A DNA stretch of 24,653 nt from a plasmid, in sequence record NZ_CP092562.1. One strand, 5' to 3'. The translations under genes were made by a program, and so were the position numbers. The notes below the pieces were generated by a model, which was not told the origin of the DNA, ran no database searches, and worked only from the letters and a program-made list of their open reading frames with translations. This document shows, in pieces, positions 1 through 24,400 of the stretch. Position 1 is the first letter of the stretch. Each line of letters starts with the position of its first letter.

Positions 1-984
1 ATGCAAAATCAATATTTTACAGTGCAAGAAAATTACAAAGAAAGATTTTATCAAATCCCTAAAGTATTCTTTACCAGTGAAAATTATAAAAATCTAACTA
101 ATGATATGAAAATAGCCTATGCTATCTTACGTGATCGCTTAAATTTATCTATTAAAAATAGCTGGGTTGATGAAGATGGTAACATTTACTTTGTTTATTC
201 AAATGAAAAGCTAATGGAAATCTTAAATTGTAAAAAAGAAAAGTTAACAAAAATAAAAAAAGGGTTAGAAAACGATGGTCTACTCATTCAAAAACGACGT
301 GGTTTAAATAAACCAAATATTCTATATTTAATGAAACCTATTGTCACAGAACGTGATATTTACAAAATAGAAAAAGAAGAAAACGATGTTGAACCTTACG
401 GCGAGAAGGAAGTTCGAAAATCGAACGTCCAGAAGTTCGAAAATCGAACGTCCAGAAGTTCGAAAATCGAACGTCCAGAAGTTCGAAAATCGAACACTAA
501 TGATACTGACTTTAATGACATTGACTTTAATGATACTGAGAATAATGATATGAATGACTTGAATGATATAAAGTACAAAAATGAAATTAGTAATCATTCA
601 AATCATTCAAATCAATTTACACATAATTTTGATGATAAAGAAATGCTATTGCAAGAATTCCCAGAACAACTAACTAATTATTTATTAAAATATGATTATA
701 GAGATTTAGAAATCATAAAGGCTGTTATTCTTAAAGCAAAAAAATCATTTAATTCAAGGCATGAAGATATGCATTACATGTTAGAGGACATTGAGGATGA
801 AATATTAACTTCTTTAAAAAGACTTAAAAAAGCTATACATGATAGGGGAGTTAAAGGCCAAAAGGAAACAATCAAGTCAATGCAAGCTTATTTAATGCAA
901 ACAATTCTAACTGAACTTGAAGAAACACATGCCCTTTATATGCGCCGTAAAAACATGAAACAATATAATATCTTTAATCAATAA
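1..984 (+). CDS. rep: RepA_N-family plasmid replication initiator (theta replicon of the pSK1/pI258 type)
   Basis: 327-aa ORF. The N-terminus MQNQYFTVQENYKERFYQIPKVFF...YAILRDRLNLS matches my memory of staphylococcal RepA_N initiators. It has an Asp/Asn-rich linker and a conserved C-terminal domain. 23-bp tandem repeats lie inside the coding region, as in this family. Confidence 0.8.
   Translation: MQNQYFTVQENYKERFYQIPKVFFTSENYKNLTNDMKIAYAILRDRLNLSIKNSWVDEDGNIYFVYSNEKLMEILNCKKEKLTKIKKGLENDGLLIQKRRGLNKPNILYLMKPIVTERDIYKIEKEENDVEPYGEKEVRKSNVQKFENRTSRSSKIERPEVRKSNTNDTDFNDIDFNDTENNDMNDLNDIKYKNEISNHSNHSNQFTHNFDDKEMLLQEFPEQLTNYLLKYDYRDLEIIKAVILKAKKSFNSRHEDMHYMLEDIEDEILTSLKRLKKAIHDRGVKGQKETIKSMQAYLMQTILTELEETHALYMRRKNMKQYNIFNQ
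409..496. repeat. About 3.7 tandem copies of a 23-bp unit GAAGTTCGAAAATCGAACGTCCA inside rep (iteron-like, candidate internal origin)
   Basis: Read directly: copies start near 409, 432, 455 and 478 (partial). The period is not a multiple of 3, so the protein reads EVRKSNVQ/KFENRTSR/SSKIERP in the three frames. RepA_N plasmids carry their origin inside rep. Confidence 0.7.
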
Positions 985-1099
985 TTCAAATGATTTTATA
1001 ACACTCGAAGAGACATCAAAATATTCCGTTAAATCATCTGACTTTTTAACTGATGACGACGAAAAAAATCAAGAAATTGTAAGTGATTTAGAAAAAGGT

Positions 1100-1285
1100 T
1101 TGTATCGAAAACGTATGTTAAGTTATGGTGGATTGCTTAAACAAAAGCATAAAATTTTAAACTTAGACGATGCCGAAGATGGTAATTTGATTAATACAAG
1201 TGATGAAGATAAAACGACAGACGAAGAAAAAAAGCACATTCAATTACCGCAATTTGGAATTTCGAAAAGCAAAATTATTATTTAA
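1100..1285 (+). CDS. Hypothetical small acidic protein downstream of rep (TTG start in the ORF track; true start uncertain)
   Basis: The open frame extends upstream to about 1020 with no ATG. The product is D/E/K-rich. A rho-independent terminator follows it directly. Confidence 0.3.
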   Translation: MYRKRMLSYGGLLKQKHKILNLDDAEDGNLINTSDEDKTTDEEKKHIQLPQFGISKSKIII

Positions 1286-1316
1286 GACATTAGTGATAAC
1301 TGATGTCTTTTTTTAT
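1285..1316 (+). terminator. Rho-independent terminator (agacattagt-GATA-actgatgtct + T7)
   Basis: A 10-bp stem with one mismatch, a 4-nt loop, then TTTTTTTATT. Confidence 0.6.
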
Positions 1317-1336
1317 TGTTTTTCTGTAAAAAAGTG

Positions 1337-1395
1337 CTGTCTTATTTTTGTGACAAATGCTGTATGTAGTGTCACAAAAGTGTGACACTACAGCT
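1337..1395. promoter_or_regulatory. Cluster of TGTGACA / TGTCACA / GTGTGACAC dyads (candidate recombinase or regulator binding site)
   Basis: TGTGACA-N14-TGTCACA followed by the palindrome GTGTGACAC. The half-sites resemble serine-recombinase or operator sites. No coding potential. Confidence 0.3.
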
Positions 1396-1527
1396 TTGTA
1401 TGATATCACTTTAAAATAACTTAAAACCCTTGGAATGTCTGGCCTTGCCAGATCTATCATTTTTGAATGATAGCAAATTTCCCTTATGCTCTTACGGAGA
1501 TTTTAGAGTTAAATTAAAATTTCTAAG

Positions 1528-1790
1528 TTTTTGATAAGAAAAGCCCTGCAGGAATTTAGAAAAACATGGGGAAGTTTTAAAGTATTTTATGCTAATTTTT
1601 AAATTTGCATGTAAATGGGCAGTATCTAAAAAATTAGTCACTGATTTTTCTGAAATTTTTGTTTGTGAAATTAGCATATATTTATTTGGCTCATATTTGC
1701 GTTTTAAGAGACTGTATAGATTTTTAAGTACAAAACCTATATGATTTGCCTCTAAGTCTTCAAAATGCCTCTTAAAATCCAAAATAAAAG
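1528..1790. repeat. Repeat B copy A, about 260 bp, roughly 85% identical to 3274-3530
   Basis: Direct alignment by eye. The shared blocks are CCTGCAGGAATTTAGAAAAAC(A/G)TGGGGAAGTTTTAAAG, TTTGCATGTAAATGGGCAGT and GGCTCATATTTGCGTTTTAA. The copy starts at TTTTTGATAA, immediately 3' of a dso-nick-like junction. Confidence 0.6.
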
Positions 1791-1839
1791 TGTTTAATAT
1801 TGTAATAAGGATTGCTATTTTTATAAAAGGAGAGATATC

Positions 1840-1989
1840 ATGAAGATTAAAACTTTCGCTACTTTTACTCATCGTCAATTAGATAAACAAGTTAATAGGT
1901 TTTTAAAGAATGATATTCATGTATTAGAAATTCAAACACACAGTAATTGGTTATATATTTCAGCTATTGTTTTTTATGAGGATAAATAA
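1840..1989 (+). CDS. Small protein, Cse60-family-like (49 aa)
   Basis: ATG preceded by AAAGGAGAG. The pattern FATFTHRQLDKQVNRFLKNDIHVLEIQ...WLYISAIVFYE resembles the Cse60/YteV small-protein family. It is below the ORF-track length cutoff. Confidence 0.45.
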   Translation: MKIKTFATFTHRQLDKQVNRFLKNDIHVLEIQTHSNWLYISAIVFYEDK

Positions 1990-2000
1990 GGAACATCGTA

Positions 2001-2156
2001 TTTATGCCGAAAAAATTTATTGATGTTGAGAAGAACCCTTAACTAAACTTGCAGACGAATGTCGGCATAGCGTGAGCTATTAAGCCGACCATTCGACAAG
2101 TTTTGGGATTGTTAAGGGTTCCGAGGCTCAACGTCAATAAAACAATTGGAATAAAA
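2001..2156 (+). other. ssoA/palA-type single-strand origin-like structured element, copy A
   Basis: About 157 bp, about 97% identical to 4047-4203. It forms a long imperfect hairpin: GTTGAGAAGAACCCTTAAC pairs with GTTAAGGGTTCCGAGGCTCAAC, AAACTTG with CAAGTTT, CGAATGTCGGC with GCCGACCATTCG. The inner hairpin ATAGC-GUGA-GCUAU presents the CS-6 motif TAGCGT. The 5' part TTTATGCCGAAAAAATTTATTG resembles RSB. Confidence 0.55.
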
Positions 2157-2849
2157 TCAACCTACAGAGCATCCAGCTGCAAATGCAGTTCCGCAAACTG
2201 CTTCACATACACCGCCGGCTATTGGATTTACGATTGCCCATACTCCACAGTAGTGAGCACATGCATAAAGTCCAGCCATACTACAAGCGAATGCTTTGCC
2301 GTTCCATTTGAATCCTGCATATGTTACCGGTCTGTTTTTATCAACTTTTTCAGCCTTATATTCAACGTAATTTTTGTTAATAAGTATTTTTCCCTCTTTG
2401 TTTTCAGTCATACTTCTTTTTTCGGCAATGAATTTTGTGATTTTTTTGTTGTAGTTATCATATATTGTTTCAGAAACTACAATTTCTTTTGTTTTTTCAT
2501 TTTTATAAGCGTTATTAGCTATGTAGCCATATGCATTTTTATCATTTGCTTCTGTAGCTAGATATTTTAATTTAGAATTTTTGTCTTCTAGCTTTATTTT
2601 TTTAAATCCTTCTTTTTTCATTTGCTTTTCGAATTTTTGCATATCTTCATTTTTATTTTGCAATTGTTCTAGAAAACTTATTTCTTTCTTGGTCATTTGT
2701 GATACTTCGATGTTTTTGCTTTTCAATTTTTCTTTTTGATTTTCTAGTAAAGAACTTTTTTGTTCTTCATTTGCGTAAGCATTAGAAAAATTCGCGCTAA
2801 ATACCAGTAGGAACAAGGAAATTATTGAAAATAATTTTATAATTTTCAT
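2157..2849 (-). CDS. Secreted Lys/Glu-rich protein with a Cys/Gly/Ala-rich hydrophobic C-terminal domain (candidate toxin or bacteriocin-like protein)
   Basis: 230 aa. A Sec signal peptide ends at SNAYA/NE. A long K/E-rich, predicted coiled-coil region follows. The last roughly 55 aa, FKWNGKAFACSMAGLYACAHYCGVWAIVNPIAGGVCEAVCGTAFAAGCSVG, carry 7 Cys and small-residue spacing. A GGAGG RBS precedes the start. Confidence 0.6.
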   Translation of the reverse strand: MKIIKLFSIISLFLLVFSANFSNAYANEEQKSSLLENQKEKLKSKNIEVSQMTKKEISFLEQLQNKNEDMQKFEKQMKKEGFKKIKLEDKNSKLKYLATEANDKNAYGYIANNAYKNEKTKEIVVSETIYDNYNKKITKFIAEKRSMTENKEGKILINKNYVEYKAEKVDKNRPVTYAGFKWNGKAFACSMAGLYACAHYCGVWAIVNPIAGGVCEAVCGTAFAAGCSVG

Positions 2850-2958
2850 TTGATACCTCCAAGATAATAAGATATTTTAATTGTATAAGTAAGCGCTTTA
2901 TAAAATCAATATTTATTTTAATATATTTATAAACATATTTTTGAAAGGAGTCTATTTT

Positions 2959-3153
2959 ATGAATGAAAATTTAGAAAAATATATAAAAAGTTTGCCACTT
3001 TTAGGTTTGTTAATTAGTATTTTGTTAATTGTTTTATTCTTTTTTATTTTAGATGTTGATGAAGATTTATTCGTGGTTTTTTTATACTGTTTATTGCCTT
3101 TGATAGTTAATTTGTCTATTTATGGTTTTTATGTTTTTGTTAAAAGAAAGTAA
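2959..3153 (+). CDS. Small two-helix membrane protein (64 aa), divergent from the 230-aa gene; candidate immunity protein
   Basis: ATG at 2959 follows AAAGGAG. Two hydrophobic segments, LPLLGLLISILLIVLFFFIL and VVFLYCLLPLIVNLSIYGFYVF. Confidence 0.5.
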   Translation: MNENLEKYIKSLPLLGLLISILLIVLFFFILDVDEDLFVVFLYCLLPLIVNLSIYGFYVFVKRK

Positions 3154-3238
3154 GATTATGAATAATTTTGTTTTTAATTTGTATGCTTTGAGGGGGTTGG
3201 AAAACGGTAGGTGTATAGATTAGATTTCTTGTTTTTTT

Positions 3239-3273
3239 GAAACGAGTGTGAACGAGTTTCTTCTTGTCTTGAT
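3239..3273 (+). other. pC194-family dso nick-site-like motif, copy 1 (GAAACGAG[TGTGAACGAG]TTTCTTCTTGTCTTGAT)
   Basis: TTCTTCTTGTCTTGAT matches the pC194/pUB110 nick region TTCTTTCTTATCTTG^ATA. Homology with the copy at 5251-5275 stops right after CTTGAT, which is the predicted nick position. Confidence 0.45.
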
Positions 3274-3530
3274 TTTTGATAAAAACGCCCTACAGGAATT
3301 TAGAAAAACGTGGGGAAGTTTTAAAGAATTTTATGCTAATTTTTAATTTGCATGTAAATGGGCAGTGTCTAAAAATAGTTATTGTTTTTGCTCAAATTTT
3401 TGTTTTTGAAAATAGCATATATTTATTTGGCTCATATTTGCGTTTTAAAAGCATATATAAGTTTTAGATATAAAACTATATGAATCACCCCTAAATCTTT
3501 AAAATGCCCTCTTAAAATTCAAAATAAGGG
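3274..3530. repeat. Repeat B copy B (about 85% identical to 1528-1790)
   Basis: See copy A. It begins immediately 3' of the nick-like motif. Confidence 0.6.
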
Positions 3531-3540
3531 CATAAAAAAT

Positions 3541-3580
3541 AAAAGCTACCCCAGATAAAGTGAGGTAGCTTTTTCTTTCA
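3541..3580. terminator. Bidirectional rho-independent terminator (AGCTACC...GGTAGCT with T-runs on both sides)
   Basis: A 7-bp stem with a 14-nt loop, followed by TTTTTCTTT on the + strand and by a T-run on the - strand. Confidence 0.5.
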
Positions 3581-3918
3581 TACGGTCTATTTATTTTTCT
3601 TTCGACGCCGTATCGTCGATGTAATTCAAAAAAGTTATGGGCTATAAATCTACATCACTTTTTCAAGAATGTAGTAGCAATATTCAACGCAAATTAATTT
3701 TTATAACTGCTCGGAATATCTCAAGCCGTTTCTTTAATTTTGAAATAAAAAAATCGACGAAGGTCGATTACGTTTTTGCACATGTCGATTTATCCGACGT
3801 ATAAGTGCGCCCTTACGGGATTTAACTAGATTATAACGACGAATTTTAGACCTGTAAAGCAATAACAATTAGGTCTACCAGGTAGATAAAGTGTACAAAG
3901 TAGAACCGAAAAAGTTAT

Positions 3919-3996
3919 TTATTTTGAAGATTTTTCGTAGATATAATTTGCTAATAAACTTCCTAAAACTGAATAAAGAAAAATAGTTAAACTCAT
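3919..3996 (-). CDS. 25-aa hydrophobic peptide MSLTIFLYSVLGSLLANYIYEKSSK (candidate type I toxin-like or leader peptide)
   Basis: Minus-strand ATG 8 nt after GGAGTGA. A single TM-like segment with a charged tail. A palindrome GTGTCTCCATGTCTACGCATAGACAC lies just upstream (4019-4046). Confidence 0.35.
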   Translation of the reverse strand: MSLTIFLYSVLGSLLANYIYEKSSK

Positions 3997-4046
3997 GTAA
4001 TCACTCCATAATTCTGAAGTGTCTCCATGTCTACGCATAGACACGC

Positions 4047-4203
4047 ATTTATGCCGAAAAAATTTATTGATGTTGAGAAGAACCCTTAACTAAACTTGCA
4101 GACGAATGTCGGCATAGCGTGAGCTATTAAGCCGACCATTCGACAAGTTTTGGGATTGTTAAGGGTTCCGAGGCTCAACGTCAATAAAGCAATTGGAATA
4201 AAG
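4047..4203 (+). other. ssoA/palA-type single-strand origin-like structured element, copy B
   Basis: Near-identical to 2001-2156, differing at about 3 positions near the 3' end. It carries the same CS-6 TAGCGT loop and the same RSB-like 5' part. Confidence 0.55.
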
Positions 4204-4238: not shown

Positions 4239-4258
4239 ATTCAAAAATATTTTTGAAT
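4239..4258. promoter_or_regulatory. cadDX operator: perfect 20-bp palindrome ATTCAAAAATATTTTTGAAT just downstream of a TATAAT -10
   Basis: The perfect dyad sits between the -10 hexamer (4231-4236) and the cadD RBS. ArsR/SmtB regulators such as CadC and CadX bind 12-2-12 dyads of this type. Confidence 0.65.
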
Positions 4259-4268
4259 GAGGTGTATT

Positions 4269-4886
4269 ATGATTCAAACGGTTGTTGCTGCTGCTGTTCT
4301 TTATATTGCTACAGCAGTTGATTTATTAGTAATTTTATTAATATTTTTTGCTAGAGCAAAGACTAGAAAAGAATATAGAGATATTTATGTTGGTCAATAT
4401 TTAGGGTCTATTATTTTAATATTAGTTAGTTTGTTTTTAGCTTTTGTATTAAATTATGTTCCAGAAAAGTGGATATTAGGTTTATTGGGTTTAATACCAA
4501 TTTATCTTGGAATTAAAGTGGCTATTTATGATGATTGTGAAGGAGAAAAGAGAGCTAAAAAAGAATTGAATGAAAAAGGATTGTCTAAATTAGTTGGTAC
4601 GGTTGCAATTGTTACGATAGCAAGTTGTGGCGCCGATAATATTGGTTTATTTGTTCCGTATTTTGTGACATTAAGTGTTACTAATTTATTACTTACTCTG
4701 TTTGTCTTTTTAATTTTAATTTTCTTCTTGGTGTTTACTGCACAAAAATTAGCTAATATTCCAGGAATTGGAGAAATTGTTGAGAAATTTAGTCGTTGGA
4801 TTATGGCTATTATTTATATAGCTTTAGGTTTATTTATTATTATTGAAAATGACACTATTCAAACAATTTTAGGATTTATATTTTAA
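4269..4886 (+). CDS. cadD: Cadmium resistance transporter CadD
   Basis: 205 aa, MIQTVVAAAVLYIATAVDLLVILLIFFARAKTRKEY..., recognised as CadD. GAGGTG RBS. The ORF-track start at 4257 is an upstream extension. Confidence 0.9.
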   Translation: MIQTVVAAAVLYIATAVDLLVILLIFFARAKTRKEYRDIYVGQYLGSIILILVSLFLAFVLNYVPEKWILGLLGLIPIYLGIKVAIYDDCEGEKRAKKELNEKGLSKLVGTVAIVTIASCGADNIGLFVPYFVTLSVTNLLLTLFVFLILIFFLVFTAQKLANIPGIGEIVEKFSRWIMAIIYIALGLFIIIENDTIQTILGFIF

Positions 4887-4904
4887 TTTAGGGTGTGATT
4901 TTAT

Positions 4905-5252
4905 ATGAGTTATGAAAATACTTGTGATGTGATCTGTGTACATGAGGATAAAGTTAACAATGCTTTAAGTTTTTTAGAAGATGATAAATCTAAGAAATTA
5001 CTTAACATTTTAGAAAAAATTTGTGATGAGAAGAAATTGAAAATCATATTATCTTTGATTAAAGAAGATGAGTTGTGTGTTTGTGATATTTCTTTGATAT
5101 TGAAAATGAGTGTTGCTTCAACTTCACATCATTTAAGGCTTTTATATAAAAATGAGGTACTTGATTTTTATAAAGATGGAAAGATGGCATATTATTTTAT
5201 TAAAGACGATGAAATAAGAGAGTTTTTCTCTAAAAATCATGAGGGTTTTTGA
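4905..5252 (+). CDS. cadX: ArsR/SmtB-family metalloregulator CadX
   Basis: 115 aa with the ELCVCDISLIL...SHHLRLL metal-binding HTH region. Directly downstream of cadD. Confidence 0.9.
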   Translation: MSYENTCDVICVHEDKVNNALSFLEDDKSKKLLNILEKICDEKKLKIILSLIKEDELCVCDISLILKMSVASTSHHLRLLYKNEVLDFYKDGKMAYYFIKDDEIREFFSKNHEGF

Positions 5253-5275
5253 AACGAGTTTCTTCTTGTCTTGAT
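5251..5275 (+). other. pC194-family dso nick-site-like motif, copy 2 (GAAACGAGTTTCTTCTTGTCTTGATAC)
   Basis: It overlaps the cadX stop codon. It contains CTTGATA, matching the pC194 and pUB110 nick sequence CTTG^ATA. Confidence 0.45.
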
Positions 5276-5408
5276 ACTATAAAAAACAAAGTTATATAAC
5301 ATAAGACGACTTATCGGAAGTAGATATGCTTGTATATTCACAGATGGTATAATAATAGAGTCGCCTATCTCTCAGGCGTCAATTGACGAAGAGAGGAGGT
5401 GCATTACT

Positions 5409-5501
5409 TTGCTAATCATTTTCGTTCACATCATAGCACCAGTCATCAGTGGCTGTGCTGTTGCGTATTATACTTATTGGCTTAGTAAACGCAACAAATA
5501 A
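5409..5501 (+). CDS. Type I toxin, SprA1/PepA1-like membrane peptide (30 aa, MLIIFVHIIAPVISGCAVAYYTYWLSKRNK)
   Basis: Near-identical to PepA1 (MLIFVHIIAPVISGCAIAFFSYWLSRRNTK) as I recall it. TTG start 9 nt after GGAGGTG. The 5' UTR can pair CTCTC with GAGAG to occlude the SD. Confidence 0.7.
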   Translation: MLIIFVHIIAPVISGCAVAYYTYWLSKRNK

Positions 5502-5530
5502 TTAATAGGCGACTTTATAAGCCAGCATCG

Positions 5531-5594
5531 AAAAAATCCCCACACTACTGCAATAGTGTGGGGATTGGTGCATTAATTGTTAATCATTTTCGTT
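5531..5594 (-). ncRNA. SprA1AS-like antisense RNA (about 64 nt), convergent with toxin 1
   Basis: Minus-strand promoter TTGCAT-18-TGTTATAAT (5601-5630). The predicted 5' end carries AACGAAAATGATTAAC, complementary to the toxin start region TTGCTAATCATTTTCGTT (5408-5426). It ends at the hairpin CCCCACACTA/TAGTGTGGGG followed by UUUUUU on the minus strand. Confidence 0.5.
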
Positions 5595-19606: not shown

Positions 19607-19634
19607 TAAGGACTGGATTTTCCAGTCCTTTTTT
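19607..19634 (+). terminator. Rho-independent terminator (GGACTGG-ATTTT-CCAGTCC + T6)
   Basis: A 7-bp GC-rich stem followed by TTTTTT. Confidence 0.7.
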
Positions 19635-19763
19635 GTGATGACAAAAAACAAGCCTCGCAGAGCACACGTTTTTAATGACTTATTTGGTTTTTAATAAGTC
19701 TAGTATGTTAAAACTTTTCTGTGTTTAGGTGTTATAATCATATGCAGTGGAAGTTGATTTATT

Positions 19764-20974
19764 ATGTCTTATTCAATTATTCGAGTTGTTAAAGTGAAAT
19801 CAAAAACAAATACAAGAGGTATTCAAAGAGAAAATAAAAATTATGAAAATATAGATATTGATTTAAGTAAGTCATATTTAAACTATGATTTAGTCAATGA
19901 TACTAAGTTTGATTTTAATAAAAAAATTGATGAGAAAATCGAACAAAATTATAAAGGGAAACGCAAAATTAGAACAGATGCCATTAAACATATTGATGGA
20001 TTAATTACATCAGATAATGTGTTTTTAATCAATTATCTGAAGAAGAGACAAAATAGTTTTTTAAGCATGCTAAAGCGTTCTTGGAAGAAGAATACGGTAA
20101 AGAAAATCTTTTATATGCGACAGTACATATGGATGAGATAACACCACATATGCATTATGGCGTAATTCCTATTACTAAAGATGGACGTTTAAGTGCGAAA
20201 GAAGTTGTAGGTAATAAAAAAGCATTAACCGAATTCCAAGATAGATTCAATACGTATATTAATAAGCAAGGCTATGATTTAAAACGAGGAATTTCTAGAC
20301 AACTTACAAAAGAAAAACATGATCAAGTTAGCGGCTATAAACAAAAAACAGAATATCATAAACAAATGTATATGCGCGAGAAGCAAATAGAGGATCATTT
20401 AAAGTAAGAAAATGATAAATTGATACAAAACTACCAAAAATCATTAGATACGCTTAAAAAGCTTCTGAGTGTCATGTATGAAATTAAAACTAAAAATGTA
20501 GGTGGATGGTTTCATAAAGAGAAGCAAGAAACAGGCAATATTGTAATTACTAAAACTTATTTTGAAAAATACACTAAACAAATTAAAGCAGCACAGATGA
20601 TATTAGATGATTATGAATGGATTAAAAGTGGGAAGTCATTAAAAAAATCAGAGAAACAAAATGAAAGTTTAGTTAATGAATTGACTAGTGTCCATATGGA
20701 AAATGAAAAGCTGGTTGAAGAATTTAATGATTTAGCACAACGTTATAATTATTTGTTGTCAGAGAATGAAAAGAAAGATAAAGAACTAAATTATACGCTT
20801 AAGTTATTCAATCAAGTTTTTAAAATCATTAAAAGTATGATGAAAGAAGAGCGTTATCATACGCTAATAAATCATATTGATAATCATTTAGACAATTCTA
20901 AAATACGTGAAGTAATGACGATAGATAACAATGATGAACAGTTCTTTAAGAAGAAATATCAAGCACAAGAATGA
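19764..20974 (+). pseudogene. mob: Pre/Mob-family (Mob_Pre) relaxase gene, disrupted by a frameshift and an in-frame stop
   Basis: The N-terminus [13 protein letters not shown] and the motif [15 protein letters not shown] are Mob_Pre hallmarks. The reading frame shifts at the T6 run 20057-20062; restoring one T gives ...[34 protein letters not shown] at 20405-20407 interrupts the same frame, which then continues into a coiled-coil C-terminus ending at 20974. Confidence 0.75.
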
Positions 20975-22751: not shown

Positions 22752-22815
22752 AACAAGAATTTCGTTTGTAAACGCACCAAACCCCGAACTATTCGCCGTA
22801 GTTCGGGGTTTTTTG
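22752..22815 (+). ncRNA. SprA1AS-like antisense RNA (about 64 nt) for toxin 2
   Basis: Promoter TTTACA-17-TATACT (22717-22745). The predicted 5' end, AACAAGAAUUUCGUUUGUAAACGCACC, is complementary (allowing G-U pairs) to the toxin-2 SD/start region (+ strand 22918-22948). It ends at the terminator CCCCGAACTA/TAGTTCGGGG followed by T6. Confidence 0.5.
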
Positions 22816-22839
22816 GTGAATTGGCTTTAATCGTCTATA

Positions 22840-22935
22840 TTATTTTTTATCACGTTTATGGAGCCAATAACCAAATAACGTAACGAGACAACCACTGATT
22901 GCCGTTGTCATGATGTGAACAAGAATTTCATTCAT
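22840..22935 (-). CDS. Type I toxin, SprA1/PepA1-like membrane peptide (31 aa, MNEILVHIMTTAISGCLVTLFGYWLHKRDKK)
   Basis: Paralogue of the 5409-5501 peptide. ATG 7 nt after GGAGGTG. The 5' UTR carries the same CTCTC...GAGAG SD-occluding arrangement (22950-22990). Confidence 0.65.
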   Translation of the reverse strand: MNEILVHIMTTAISGCLVTLFGYWLHKRDKK

Positions 22936-23084
22936 AAATCGCACCTCCTCTCTACGCCGAATTGACGTCTGAGAGATAGACGACCTTCACATTATAACAA
23001 ATCTCTTCTTCCATGAAATAACATGAATATTAATAAATGTTGTTATATATTAAAGATAAATAAATATAAGGGTGGGATTGATAA

Positions 23085-24228: not shown

Positions 24229-24239
24229 ATCATCAACCC

Positions 24240-24400
24240 TTTATAAAATGTTTATAAACCCTTGATAAAATATTATAAGCTTATAATGCTTAATAATAAA
24301 GTGATTAATAAATAAAAATAAACATCCATCAACCTTTTTATCAAGGGTTTATGAAAGGTTTATGATATTTATCAAGGGTTTATAAACCCTTGATAAAGCT
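24240..24400. promoter_or_regulatory. par upstream region with repeated TTTATCAAGGGTTTATA / TATAAACCCTTGATAAA sites, including a 30-bp perfect palindrome (24369-24398)
   Basis: Read directly: TTTATCAAGGGTTTATAAACCCTTGATAAA is a perfect dyad. Further half-site copies lie at about 24257-24276 and 24338-24353. Confidence 0.55.

Follow-up and report, generated by a model that had tools for sequence, protein, structure and literature searches.

Rolling-circle plasmids of staphylococci widely carry ssoA (palA), a single-strand origin (SSO) of about 160 nt that adopts a large secondary structure when single-stranded, is recognized and primed in that form by RNA polymerase, and includes a conserved part termed RSB (PMC5703833). 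RSB is loop-distal and is required for polymerase binding, and CS-6, a motif in the loop, terminates primer synthesis (PMC8860593). Wassenaar et al. (2016) described qacC and lnuA modules composed of an ssoA-type SSO and a pC194-like double-strand origin (DSO) with its nick site, and reported the same genes on large plasmids as well (PMC5037232). Complete rolling-circle plasmids, such as pUR2865-int, have been found integrated in large staphylococcal plasmids (PMC8407400), and embedded rolling-circle fragments are a documented context in such plasmids. Here we analyze a pair of near-identical repeats in a 24,653-nt stretch of DNA (NZ_CP092562.1; hereafter, the window), which represents a large Staphylococcus aureus resistance plasmid. 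We propose that the two repeats are very probably pC194-type ssoA elements and form the SSO ends of SSO–cargo–DSO modules inherited from a rolling-circle plasmid of the pUSA01/pC194 family.

The repeats are direct (1997–2155 and 4044–4202) and spaced 2047 nt apart; 157 of 159 positions are identical, the two mismatches being 1999 T/C and 2142 A/G. Homology between them breaks off sharply at both edges, and the element proper, running from TTTATGCC to GGAATAAA, measures 155 nt in each copy (2001–2155 and 4048–4202). A first-pass annotation, made from the letters of the window alone, had reported two near-identical copies in direct orientation, and this description stands once its coordinates are shifted by 1–2 nt; its figure of 97% was too low, since two mismatches in 159 positions amount to an identity of ~99%. 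By comparison, the backbone shared around the copies is 85–94% identical.

Among 72,556 plasmid records searched, the element was found in 2199, nearly all of them from Staphylococcus and many of them 2–4 kb in size. Over 160 nt, copy 1 is 96.3% and copy 2 is 97.5% identical to pC194 2050–2210, a region that we take to be palA, in part from its 94–96% identity to the annotated sso of the pSELNU plasmids. Identities to pUSA01 1928–2086 were 98.1% for copy 1 and 98.8% for copy 2, and those to pSELNU2 1845–2004 were 94–96%. The sso annotated in the published description of pSELNU1 has RSB (TTATGCCGAGAAAATTT) at 1850–1866 and CS-6 (TAGCGT) at 1917–1922, and both motifs fall within the stretch matched by the element. 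The relationship to known palA/ssoA regions that the first-pass annotation had supposed is therefore clear for pC194, pUSA01, and pSELNU2, and in pC194 it is full-length, but in pT181 and pE194 it is confined to the two conserved ends, RSB and the 3′ CAATAA..AATTGGAATAAA, even though these elements adopt the same rod. Judged by sequence, both repeats are ssoA/palA, a known, textbook element type, and the finding is real but ordinary.

Modelling of the + strand of copy 1 as single-stranded DNA gave a single imperfect rod with a folding energy of −36.6 kcal/mol, compared with −14.0 ± 2.8 kcal/mol for shuffled sequences (z = −8.1; 0 of 200 shuffles as good). The complementary strand folds nearly equally well (z = −7.7), which is true of any hairpin, and the fold consequently cannot tell which strand is active. 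The base of the rod starts with TTTATGCCGAAAAAATTTATTG, and at its apex a GTGA loop closes a 5-bp stem, ATAGC/GCTAT; in both copies TAGCGT covers the last four bases of the apical stem and the first two of the loop, so that CS-6 stands at the terminal loop. Farthest from the loop, at the 5′ base of the stem, the sequence TTATGCCGAAAAAATTT agrees with the published RSB at 16 of 17 positions. At 155 nt, each copy is an imperfect palindrome of the length that characterizes ssoA (~150–160 nt, forming one long hairpin). The long imperfect hairpin, the display of CS-6 in the apical loop, and the RSB-like 5′ part had all been put forward from the sequence beforehand, and the folding of both strands and the comparison with the published motifs bear them out.

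A hairpin of this kind could also be read in terms of transcription or translation. It is stable on both strands, copy 1 sits between convergent open reading frames (ORFs), and an ATG-led ORF of 12 codons, MPKKFIDVEKNP, occurs in both copies, as would suit a structured non-coding RNA or a transcription terminator, or else a sequence that encodes a 12-residue peptide. We consider all of these extremely improbable, as rolling-circle plasmids carry this very sequence as a defined DNA element. The covariance models of Rfam 15 gave no match on either copy, whether at the gathering score or at E values up to 10, and a structured non-coding RNA was rejected on this ground; the earlier fallback proposal of an undescribed structured RNA family loses its footing with this empty scan and with the homology to known ssoA. 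No terminator-like site was found at 2001–2155 or 4048–4202 and promoter-like matches were at chance level, which led us to reject a terminator or promoter. The mini-ORF, which the first-pass annotation had suspected of being incidental, is indeed present in both copies and is not conserved across the family: its length ranges from 5 to more than 50 codons, the only constant part, MPRK(F/L), is RSB itself, and no Shine–Dalgarno sequence lies at a usable distance. A meaningful mini-ORF was rejected accordingly.

The rod extends well beyond the pC194-type members. When one genome of each species was searched with the 17-nt RSB pattern, at least 120 loci were returned, most of them chance matches in unrelated phyla because the pattern is too short. 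Retaining only loci that also had AATTGGAATAA 90–175 nt downstream left at least 29 elements, a sample rather than a census, from Staphylococcus, Salinicoccus, Jeotgalicoccus, Macrococcoides, Streptococcus, and uncultured Firmicutes. Apart from those of the pC194 type, these elements have central sequences unrelated to that of pC194 and largely unrelated to each other as well, and yet nearly all of them share the rod and the invariant base from which it rises. The common layout of this base comprises P1 (TTTAT/ATAAA), P2 (CCGA/TTGG), a 5-nt internal loop, and a variable stem, P3. Covariation was analyzed over the basal 21 pairs, for which the two arms of 27 distinct members among the matches listed were aligned without gaps. 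Paired cells made up 92.4% of the alignment, compared with 77.5 ± 1.1% after shuffling (0 of 500 shuffles reached the observed value) and 35–54% in slid registers, and the covariation score was 0.383, compared with 0.125 after shuffling (0 of 500) and 0.04–0.13 in slid registers. Double-sided changes were present in 10 of the 12 variable-stem pairs. These controls are imperfect because the structure was derived from the same sequences and the sequences are related; despite this, the effect is large and specific to one register. As a side observation, staphylococcal-type ssoA also turned up in the scan on short contigs assigned to Bacteroidales, Micromonospora, and Rhizobium (loci L012, L015, and L040); contamination of those assemblies with small plasmids is the probable cause.

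A near-identical public record reads unbroken across the window ends, which indicates that the window covers a complete circular plasmid, cut open at its theta-type repA. Iterons of 23 bp (GAAGTTCGAAAATCGAACGTCCA) lie at 409–495 within the repA coding sequence, and the only initiators annotated in the identical public plasmid are of the theta type; we infer that the theta repA replicon is what maintains the plasmid. Both ssoA copies lie close to repA, in the two modules whose features are given in Table 1.

Table 1. Coordinates of the ssoA copies, of the modules around them, and of related features, as assigned in the window
Feature	Position	Strand	Basis or detail
Theta-type repA	1–984	+	Annotated 'replication initiator protein A'; ORF and public annotation
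Rolling-circle rep, 3′ stub	986–1294	+	About the last 95 codons; frameshift near end; HUH motif region missing
Module A post-rep backbone	1295–1832	+	Partly repeated at 3283–3465
ssoA/palA copy 1	2001–2155	+	RSB 2002–2018; CS-6 TAGCGT 2068–2073; 3′ conserved arm CAATAAAACAATTGGAATAAA
Module A cargo	2157–3232	-	Listed ORFs; product names from 100%-identical public records
Putative immunity/bacteriocin fusion gene	2157–2849	-	Name from 100%-identical public record
Small ORF in module A cargo	2941–3153, counted from upstream TTG	+	Annotated in 100%-identical record
dso remnant 1	3233–3273	+	Two AACGAGT direct repeats; CTTG/AT, nick expected at 3271/3272
Module B post-rep backbone	3274–4043	+	Without rep gene; 73% identical to pSELNU2 1181–1719 and 87% to pUSA01 1256–1525
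ssoA/palA copy 2	4048–4202	+	RSB 4049–4065; CS-6 TAGCGT 4115–4120
cadD	4257–4886	+	Module B cargo (4257–5252); annotation from identical records
cadX	4905–5252	+	Module B cargo; annotation from identical records
dso remnant 2	5253–5281	+	One AACGAGT; CTTG/ATACTATA, nick expected at 5273/5274
pT181-like RSA-pre/mob remnant	19618–20547	+	74.5% identical to pT181 2376–3317

Module A consists, in order, of a rep stub, backbone, ssoA-1, a bacteriocin/immunity gene, and a dso remnant, and module B of backbone, ssoA-2, cadD–cadX, and a dso remnant. Since the two modules adjoin the theta repA in a head-to-tail arrangement, the ssoA copies appear as direct repeats ~2 kb apart. The rep stub is 90% identical to pSELNU2 rep 794–1084 and its translation fits the C-terminus of the pUSA01 Rep; more broadly, pUSA01 704–1570 aligns with window 1002–1832 at 87% identity over 871 nt, and the backbone homology ends at about pUSA01 1570. 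Both dso remnants are of the pC194 type, with the nick motif CTTG/ATA; that of module A is 100% identical to pUSA01 2927–2967, and that of module B is 100% identical to both pUSA01 2945–2973 and pSELNU2 2546–2575. At the first remnant, homology to intact plasmids ends two bases past the nick and is followed by the second post-rep backbone, a type of junction that either illegitimate recombination or termination by Rep would be expected to leave. Taken together, the rep stub, the backbone homology, and the two dso remnants, all of which have counterparts in intact rolling-circle plasmids, confirm the earlier suggestion that segments of rolling-circle plasmids are integrated here. Within the module B backbone, 3569–3791 on the - strand gave a full-length Rfam match to RefA1, 'Enterococcus sRNA A1' (262 bits; gathering score 94); as the match falls within backbone homologous to pSELNU2, this 'Enterococcus' RNA may belong to the backbone of small rolling-circle plasmids.

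The orientation of the parts is that of a rolling-circle plasmid. In both modules the strand nicked at the dso and the strand bearing RSB and CS-6 are the window + strand, the same arrangement as in pC194, pUSA01, and pSELNU2, and one that accords with ssoA, whose active strand is the one nicked at the dso, the displaced leading strand. A functional rolling-circle Rep is missing from the replicon: module A keeps a frameshifted stub of ~95 codons, and module B has no part of the gene; this absence bears on the context of the elements and not on their sequence identity as ssoA.

According to the literature on the ssoA family, exposure of the + strand as single-stranded DNA would allow the ~155-nt sequence to fold into the rod. 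Host RNA polymerase would bind the base of the rod, formed by RSB and its partner arm, and make a short primer RNA that would end at CS-6 of the apical loop; extension of this primer by DNA polymerases would then yield the complementary strand. In the window plasmid, where the theta RepA drives replication and at most a truncated rolling-circle rep is left, vegetative replication would not depend on the ssoA copies, which could fire only if the + strand were exposed as single-stranded DNA. This might come about by either of two routes: the dso remnants could be nicked by a Rep supplied in trans, for example from a co-resident pUSA01-type plasmid, or the strand could be transferred after mobilization by a relaxase acting in trans. 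pUSA01 co-occurs with plasmids of the window plasmid's family in USA300 strains. The polarity of the elements is compatible with both routes. For mobilization, polarity was judged on the pT181-like RSA-pre remnant (Table 1), whose orientation relative to ssoA is the same as in pT181, a match that is weak evidence because it is a one-in-two event. The pre gene of this remnant is broken into two short ORFs annotated 'plasmid recombination protein', and the remnant itself is a third mark of the plasmid's descent from rolling-circle plasmids.

If such routes operate, the modules might still be mobile. A pUSA01-type Rep could nick at 3271/3272 and end at 5273/5274, releasing a single-stranded circle of ~2.0 kb that holds ssoA-2 and cadD–cadX and that ssoA-2 would make double-stranded; alternatively, the ssoA copies might be kept for priming after mobilization by a relaxase in trans. 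We regard both ideas as long shots, but if the modules do move in this way, a cadmium-resistance cassette could shuttle between large and small plasmids.

Several observations weigh against the proposal that the copies are pC194-type ssoA. Window positions 2011 and 4058, which correspond to RSB position 11, are A in both copies (GCCGAAAAAA), whereas this position is G (GCCGAGAAAA) in all 25 of the other distinct members among the matches listed. A 36-mer carrying A11 was present in 438 plasmid records, and among 60 sampled rows, which included pUSA300HOUMR, none was below 8 kb and all were at least 13 kb; the otherwise identical G11 36-mer was present in 919 records, and 19 of 60 sampled rows, including pUSA01-type plasmids, were below 8 kb. 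The bias of A11 toward large plasmids (Fisher P = 7 × 10−7, 60 + 60 sampled rows) could reflect relaxed constraint with partial loss of function, or just clonal descent; a single successful lineage fits the bias equally well because the records are not independent. Finally, with no intact rolling-circle rep in the plasmid, a rolling-circle role here is excluded unless Rep is provided in trans.

These observations raise the possibility that the copies are inert fossils, that is, ssoA by descent that no longer function, carried along with useful cargo and with the G-to-A change marking the onset of decay. The truncation or deletion of the rolling-circle rep in a plasmid with its own theta replicon fits this account, as do the substitution of an otherwise invariant RSB base in both copies and the absence of small plasmids from the A11 sample. 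Free decay, however, predicts otherwise than what is seen in the repeats, which are 99% identical to one another in a flanking backbone of lower identity and have all of their stems intact. The A11 substitution lies in the unpaired internal loop of RSB, and the fold is therefore unaffected, and the size bias may mirror one successful, pUSA300HOUMR-like lineage. To us this account is a real possibility, though we lean against it. The A11 variant, found in the sample on large plasmids only, is a mildly new point, and it offers a cheap handle on whether embedded origins remain under selection.

The higher identity of the copies relative to their flanks is also compatible with gene conversion, and the elements might accordingly serve chiefly as sites of recombination, at which RSB and 155 nt of near-identity promote crossovers that shuffle or delete cargo, rather than as sites of priming. 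The original definition of RSB was that of a recombination site for co-integrates (PMC5703833). The number of copies in related plasmids is 1, 2, 3, or 4, and ssoA and dso bound the cargo segments exactly. Recombination would, however, be a by-product of the repeats and not a distinct function, and it leaves unexplained why the rod is conserved over unrelated central sequences. In addition, public data contain a single apparent product of excision, and this has the look of an assembly artefact (see below). We therefore judge a primary role in recombination to be unlikely and retain the interpretation of the repeats as pC194-type ssoA.

The apparent excision product is found in strain S82 (NZ_CP099509.1 and NZ_CP099510.1), where pS82_1 (22,489 bp) corresponds to window 1–2024 plus 4189–24653 and pS82_2 (1,931 bp) to window 2142–4069. 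The two plasmids together equal the window minus the shared hairpin interiors, 2025–2141 and 4070–4188. We rejected pS82_2 as a rep-less minicircle formed by excision, as the split falls exactly at the ssoA copies and both hairpin interiors are missing; the two-plasmid configuration most likely represents a repeat-collapse assembly artefact and not a real minicircle. Being near-identical, the ssoA repeats probably mislead assemblers.

Further features were observed elsewhere in the plasmid. An Fst-type toxin–antitoxin system lies at 5452–5552 on the - strand, directly after dso remnant 2 (Rfam fstAT, 88.5 bits), and a second Fst locus that is 73% similar lies near 22771–22984, where the public annotation has a second Fst toxin. 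Immediately upstream of repA, at 24239–24398, a 31-nt sequence occurs as an inverted repeat and also as a direct repeat (TTTATAAACCCTTGATAAA motifs); it lies across the circular junction from repA and adjoins a DUF536 gene.

Of practical use is that the 155-nt hairpins, which go unannotated, serve as border markers for cargo modules in a very common family of S. aureus plasmids. The discovery value is small, ssoA/palA being textbook elements and embedded rolling-circle fragments being documented already; what is mildly new is limited to the identities of the two cargoes, the RSB variant seen on large plasmids in the sample, and the probable assembly artefact in public data.

Compared with known systems, the window copies share the length class, rod shape, and invariant base (TTTATGCCGAGAAAA ... 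AATTGGAATAAA) of the palA elements of pT181 and pE194, but the central 100 nt of those elements cannot be aligned with the window copies, and in pT181 the TAGCG motif is displaced from the apex to a side hairpin. Like the modules of Wassenaar et al., those in the window have cargo genes between an ssoA-type SSO and a pC194-like DSO (PMC5037232). They differ in their cargo, which is cadD–cadX and a bacteriocin/immunity gene instead of qacC or lnuA, and in being locked into a theta plasmid, where the dso copies are truncated; in the sampled matches no small rolling-circle plasmid carried the window cargoes, and small plasmids matched the ~40-nt dso end only. The presence of a rolling-circle dso and sso inside a larger theta plasmid is shared with pUR2865-int (PMC8407400), although plasmids of that type are integrated whole and the window keeps rep-less fragments only.

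The nearest counterparts are pC194 and pUSA01. pC194 carries its element on the complementary strand of its record (NC_002013.1) and shares with the window copies the rod, the CS-6-bearing apex ATAGC-GTGA-GCTAT, and the 3′ arm. It differs in having GTGCG just after RSB, where the window copies have GATG and thereby lose a bulge, and G rather than A at RSB position 11, and the window plasmid, unlike pC194, has no functional rolling-circle rep. pUSA01 (NZ_CP014436.1), the 3.1-kb cryptic rolling-circle plasmid of USA300, has a complete rep, a full dso, and an unrelated cargo ORF, for which comparison with the bacteriocin/immunity gene gave no significant homology. With its rep 3′ end and backbone at 87% identity, its ssoA at 98–99%, and its dso nick region at 100%, pUSA01 is nonetheless the closest intact relative of the whole module.

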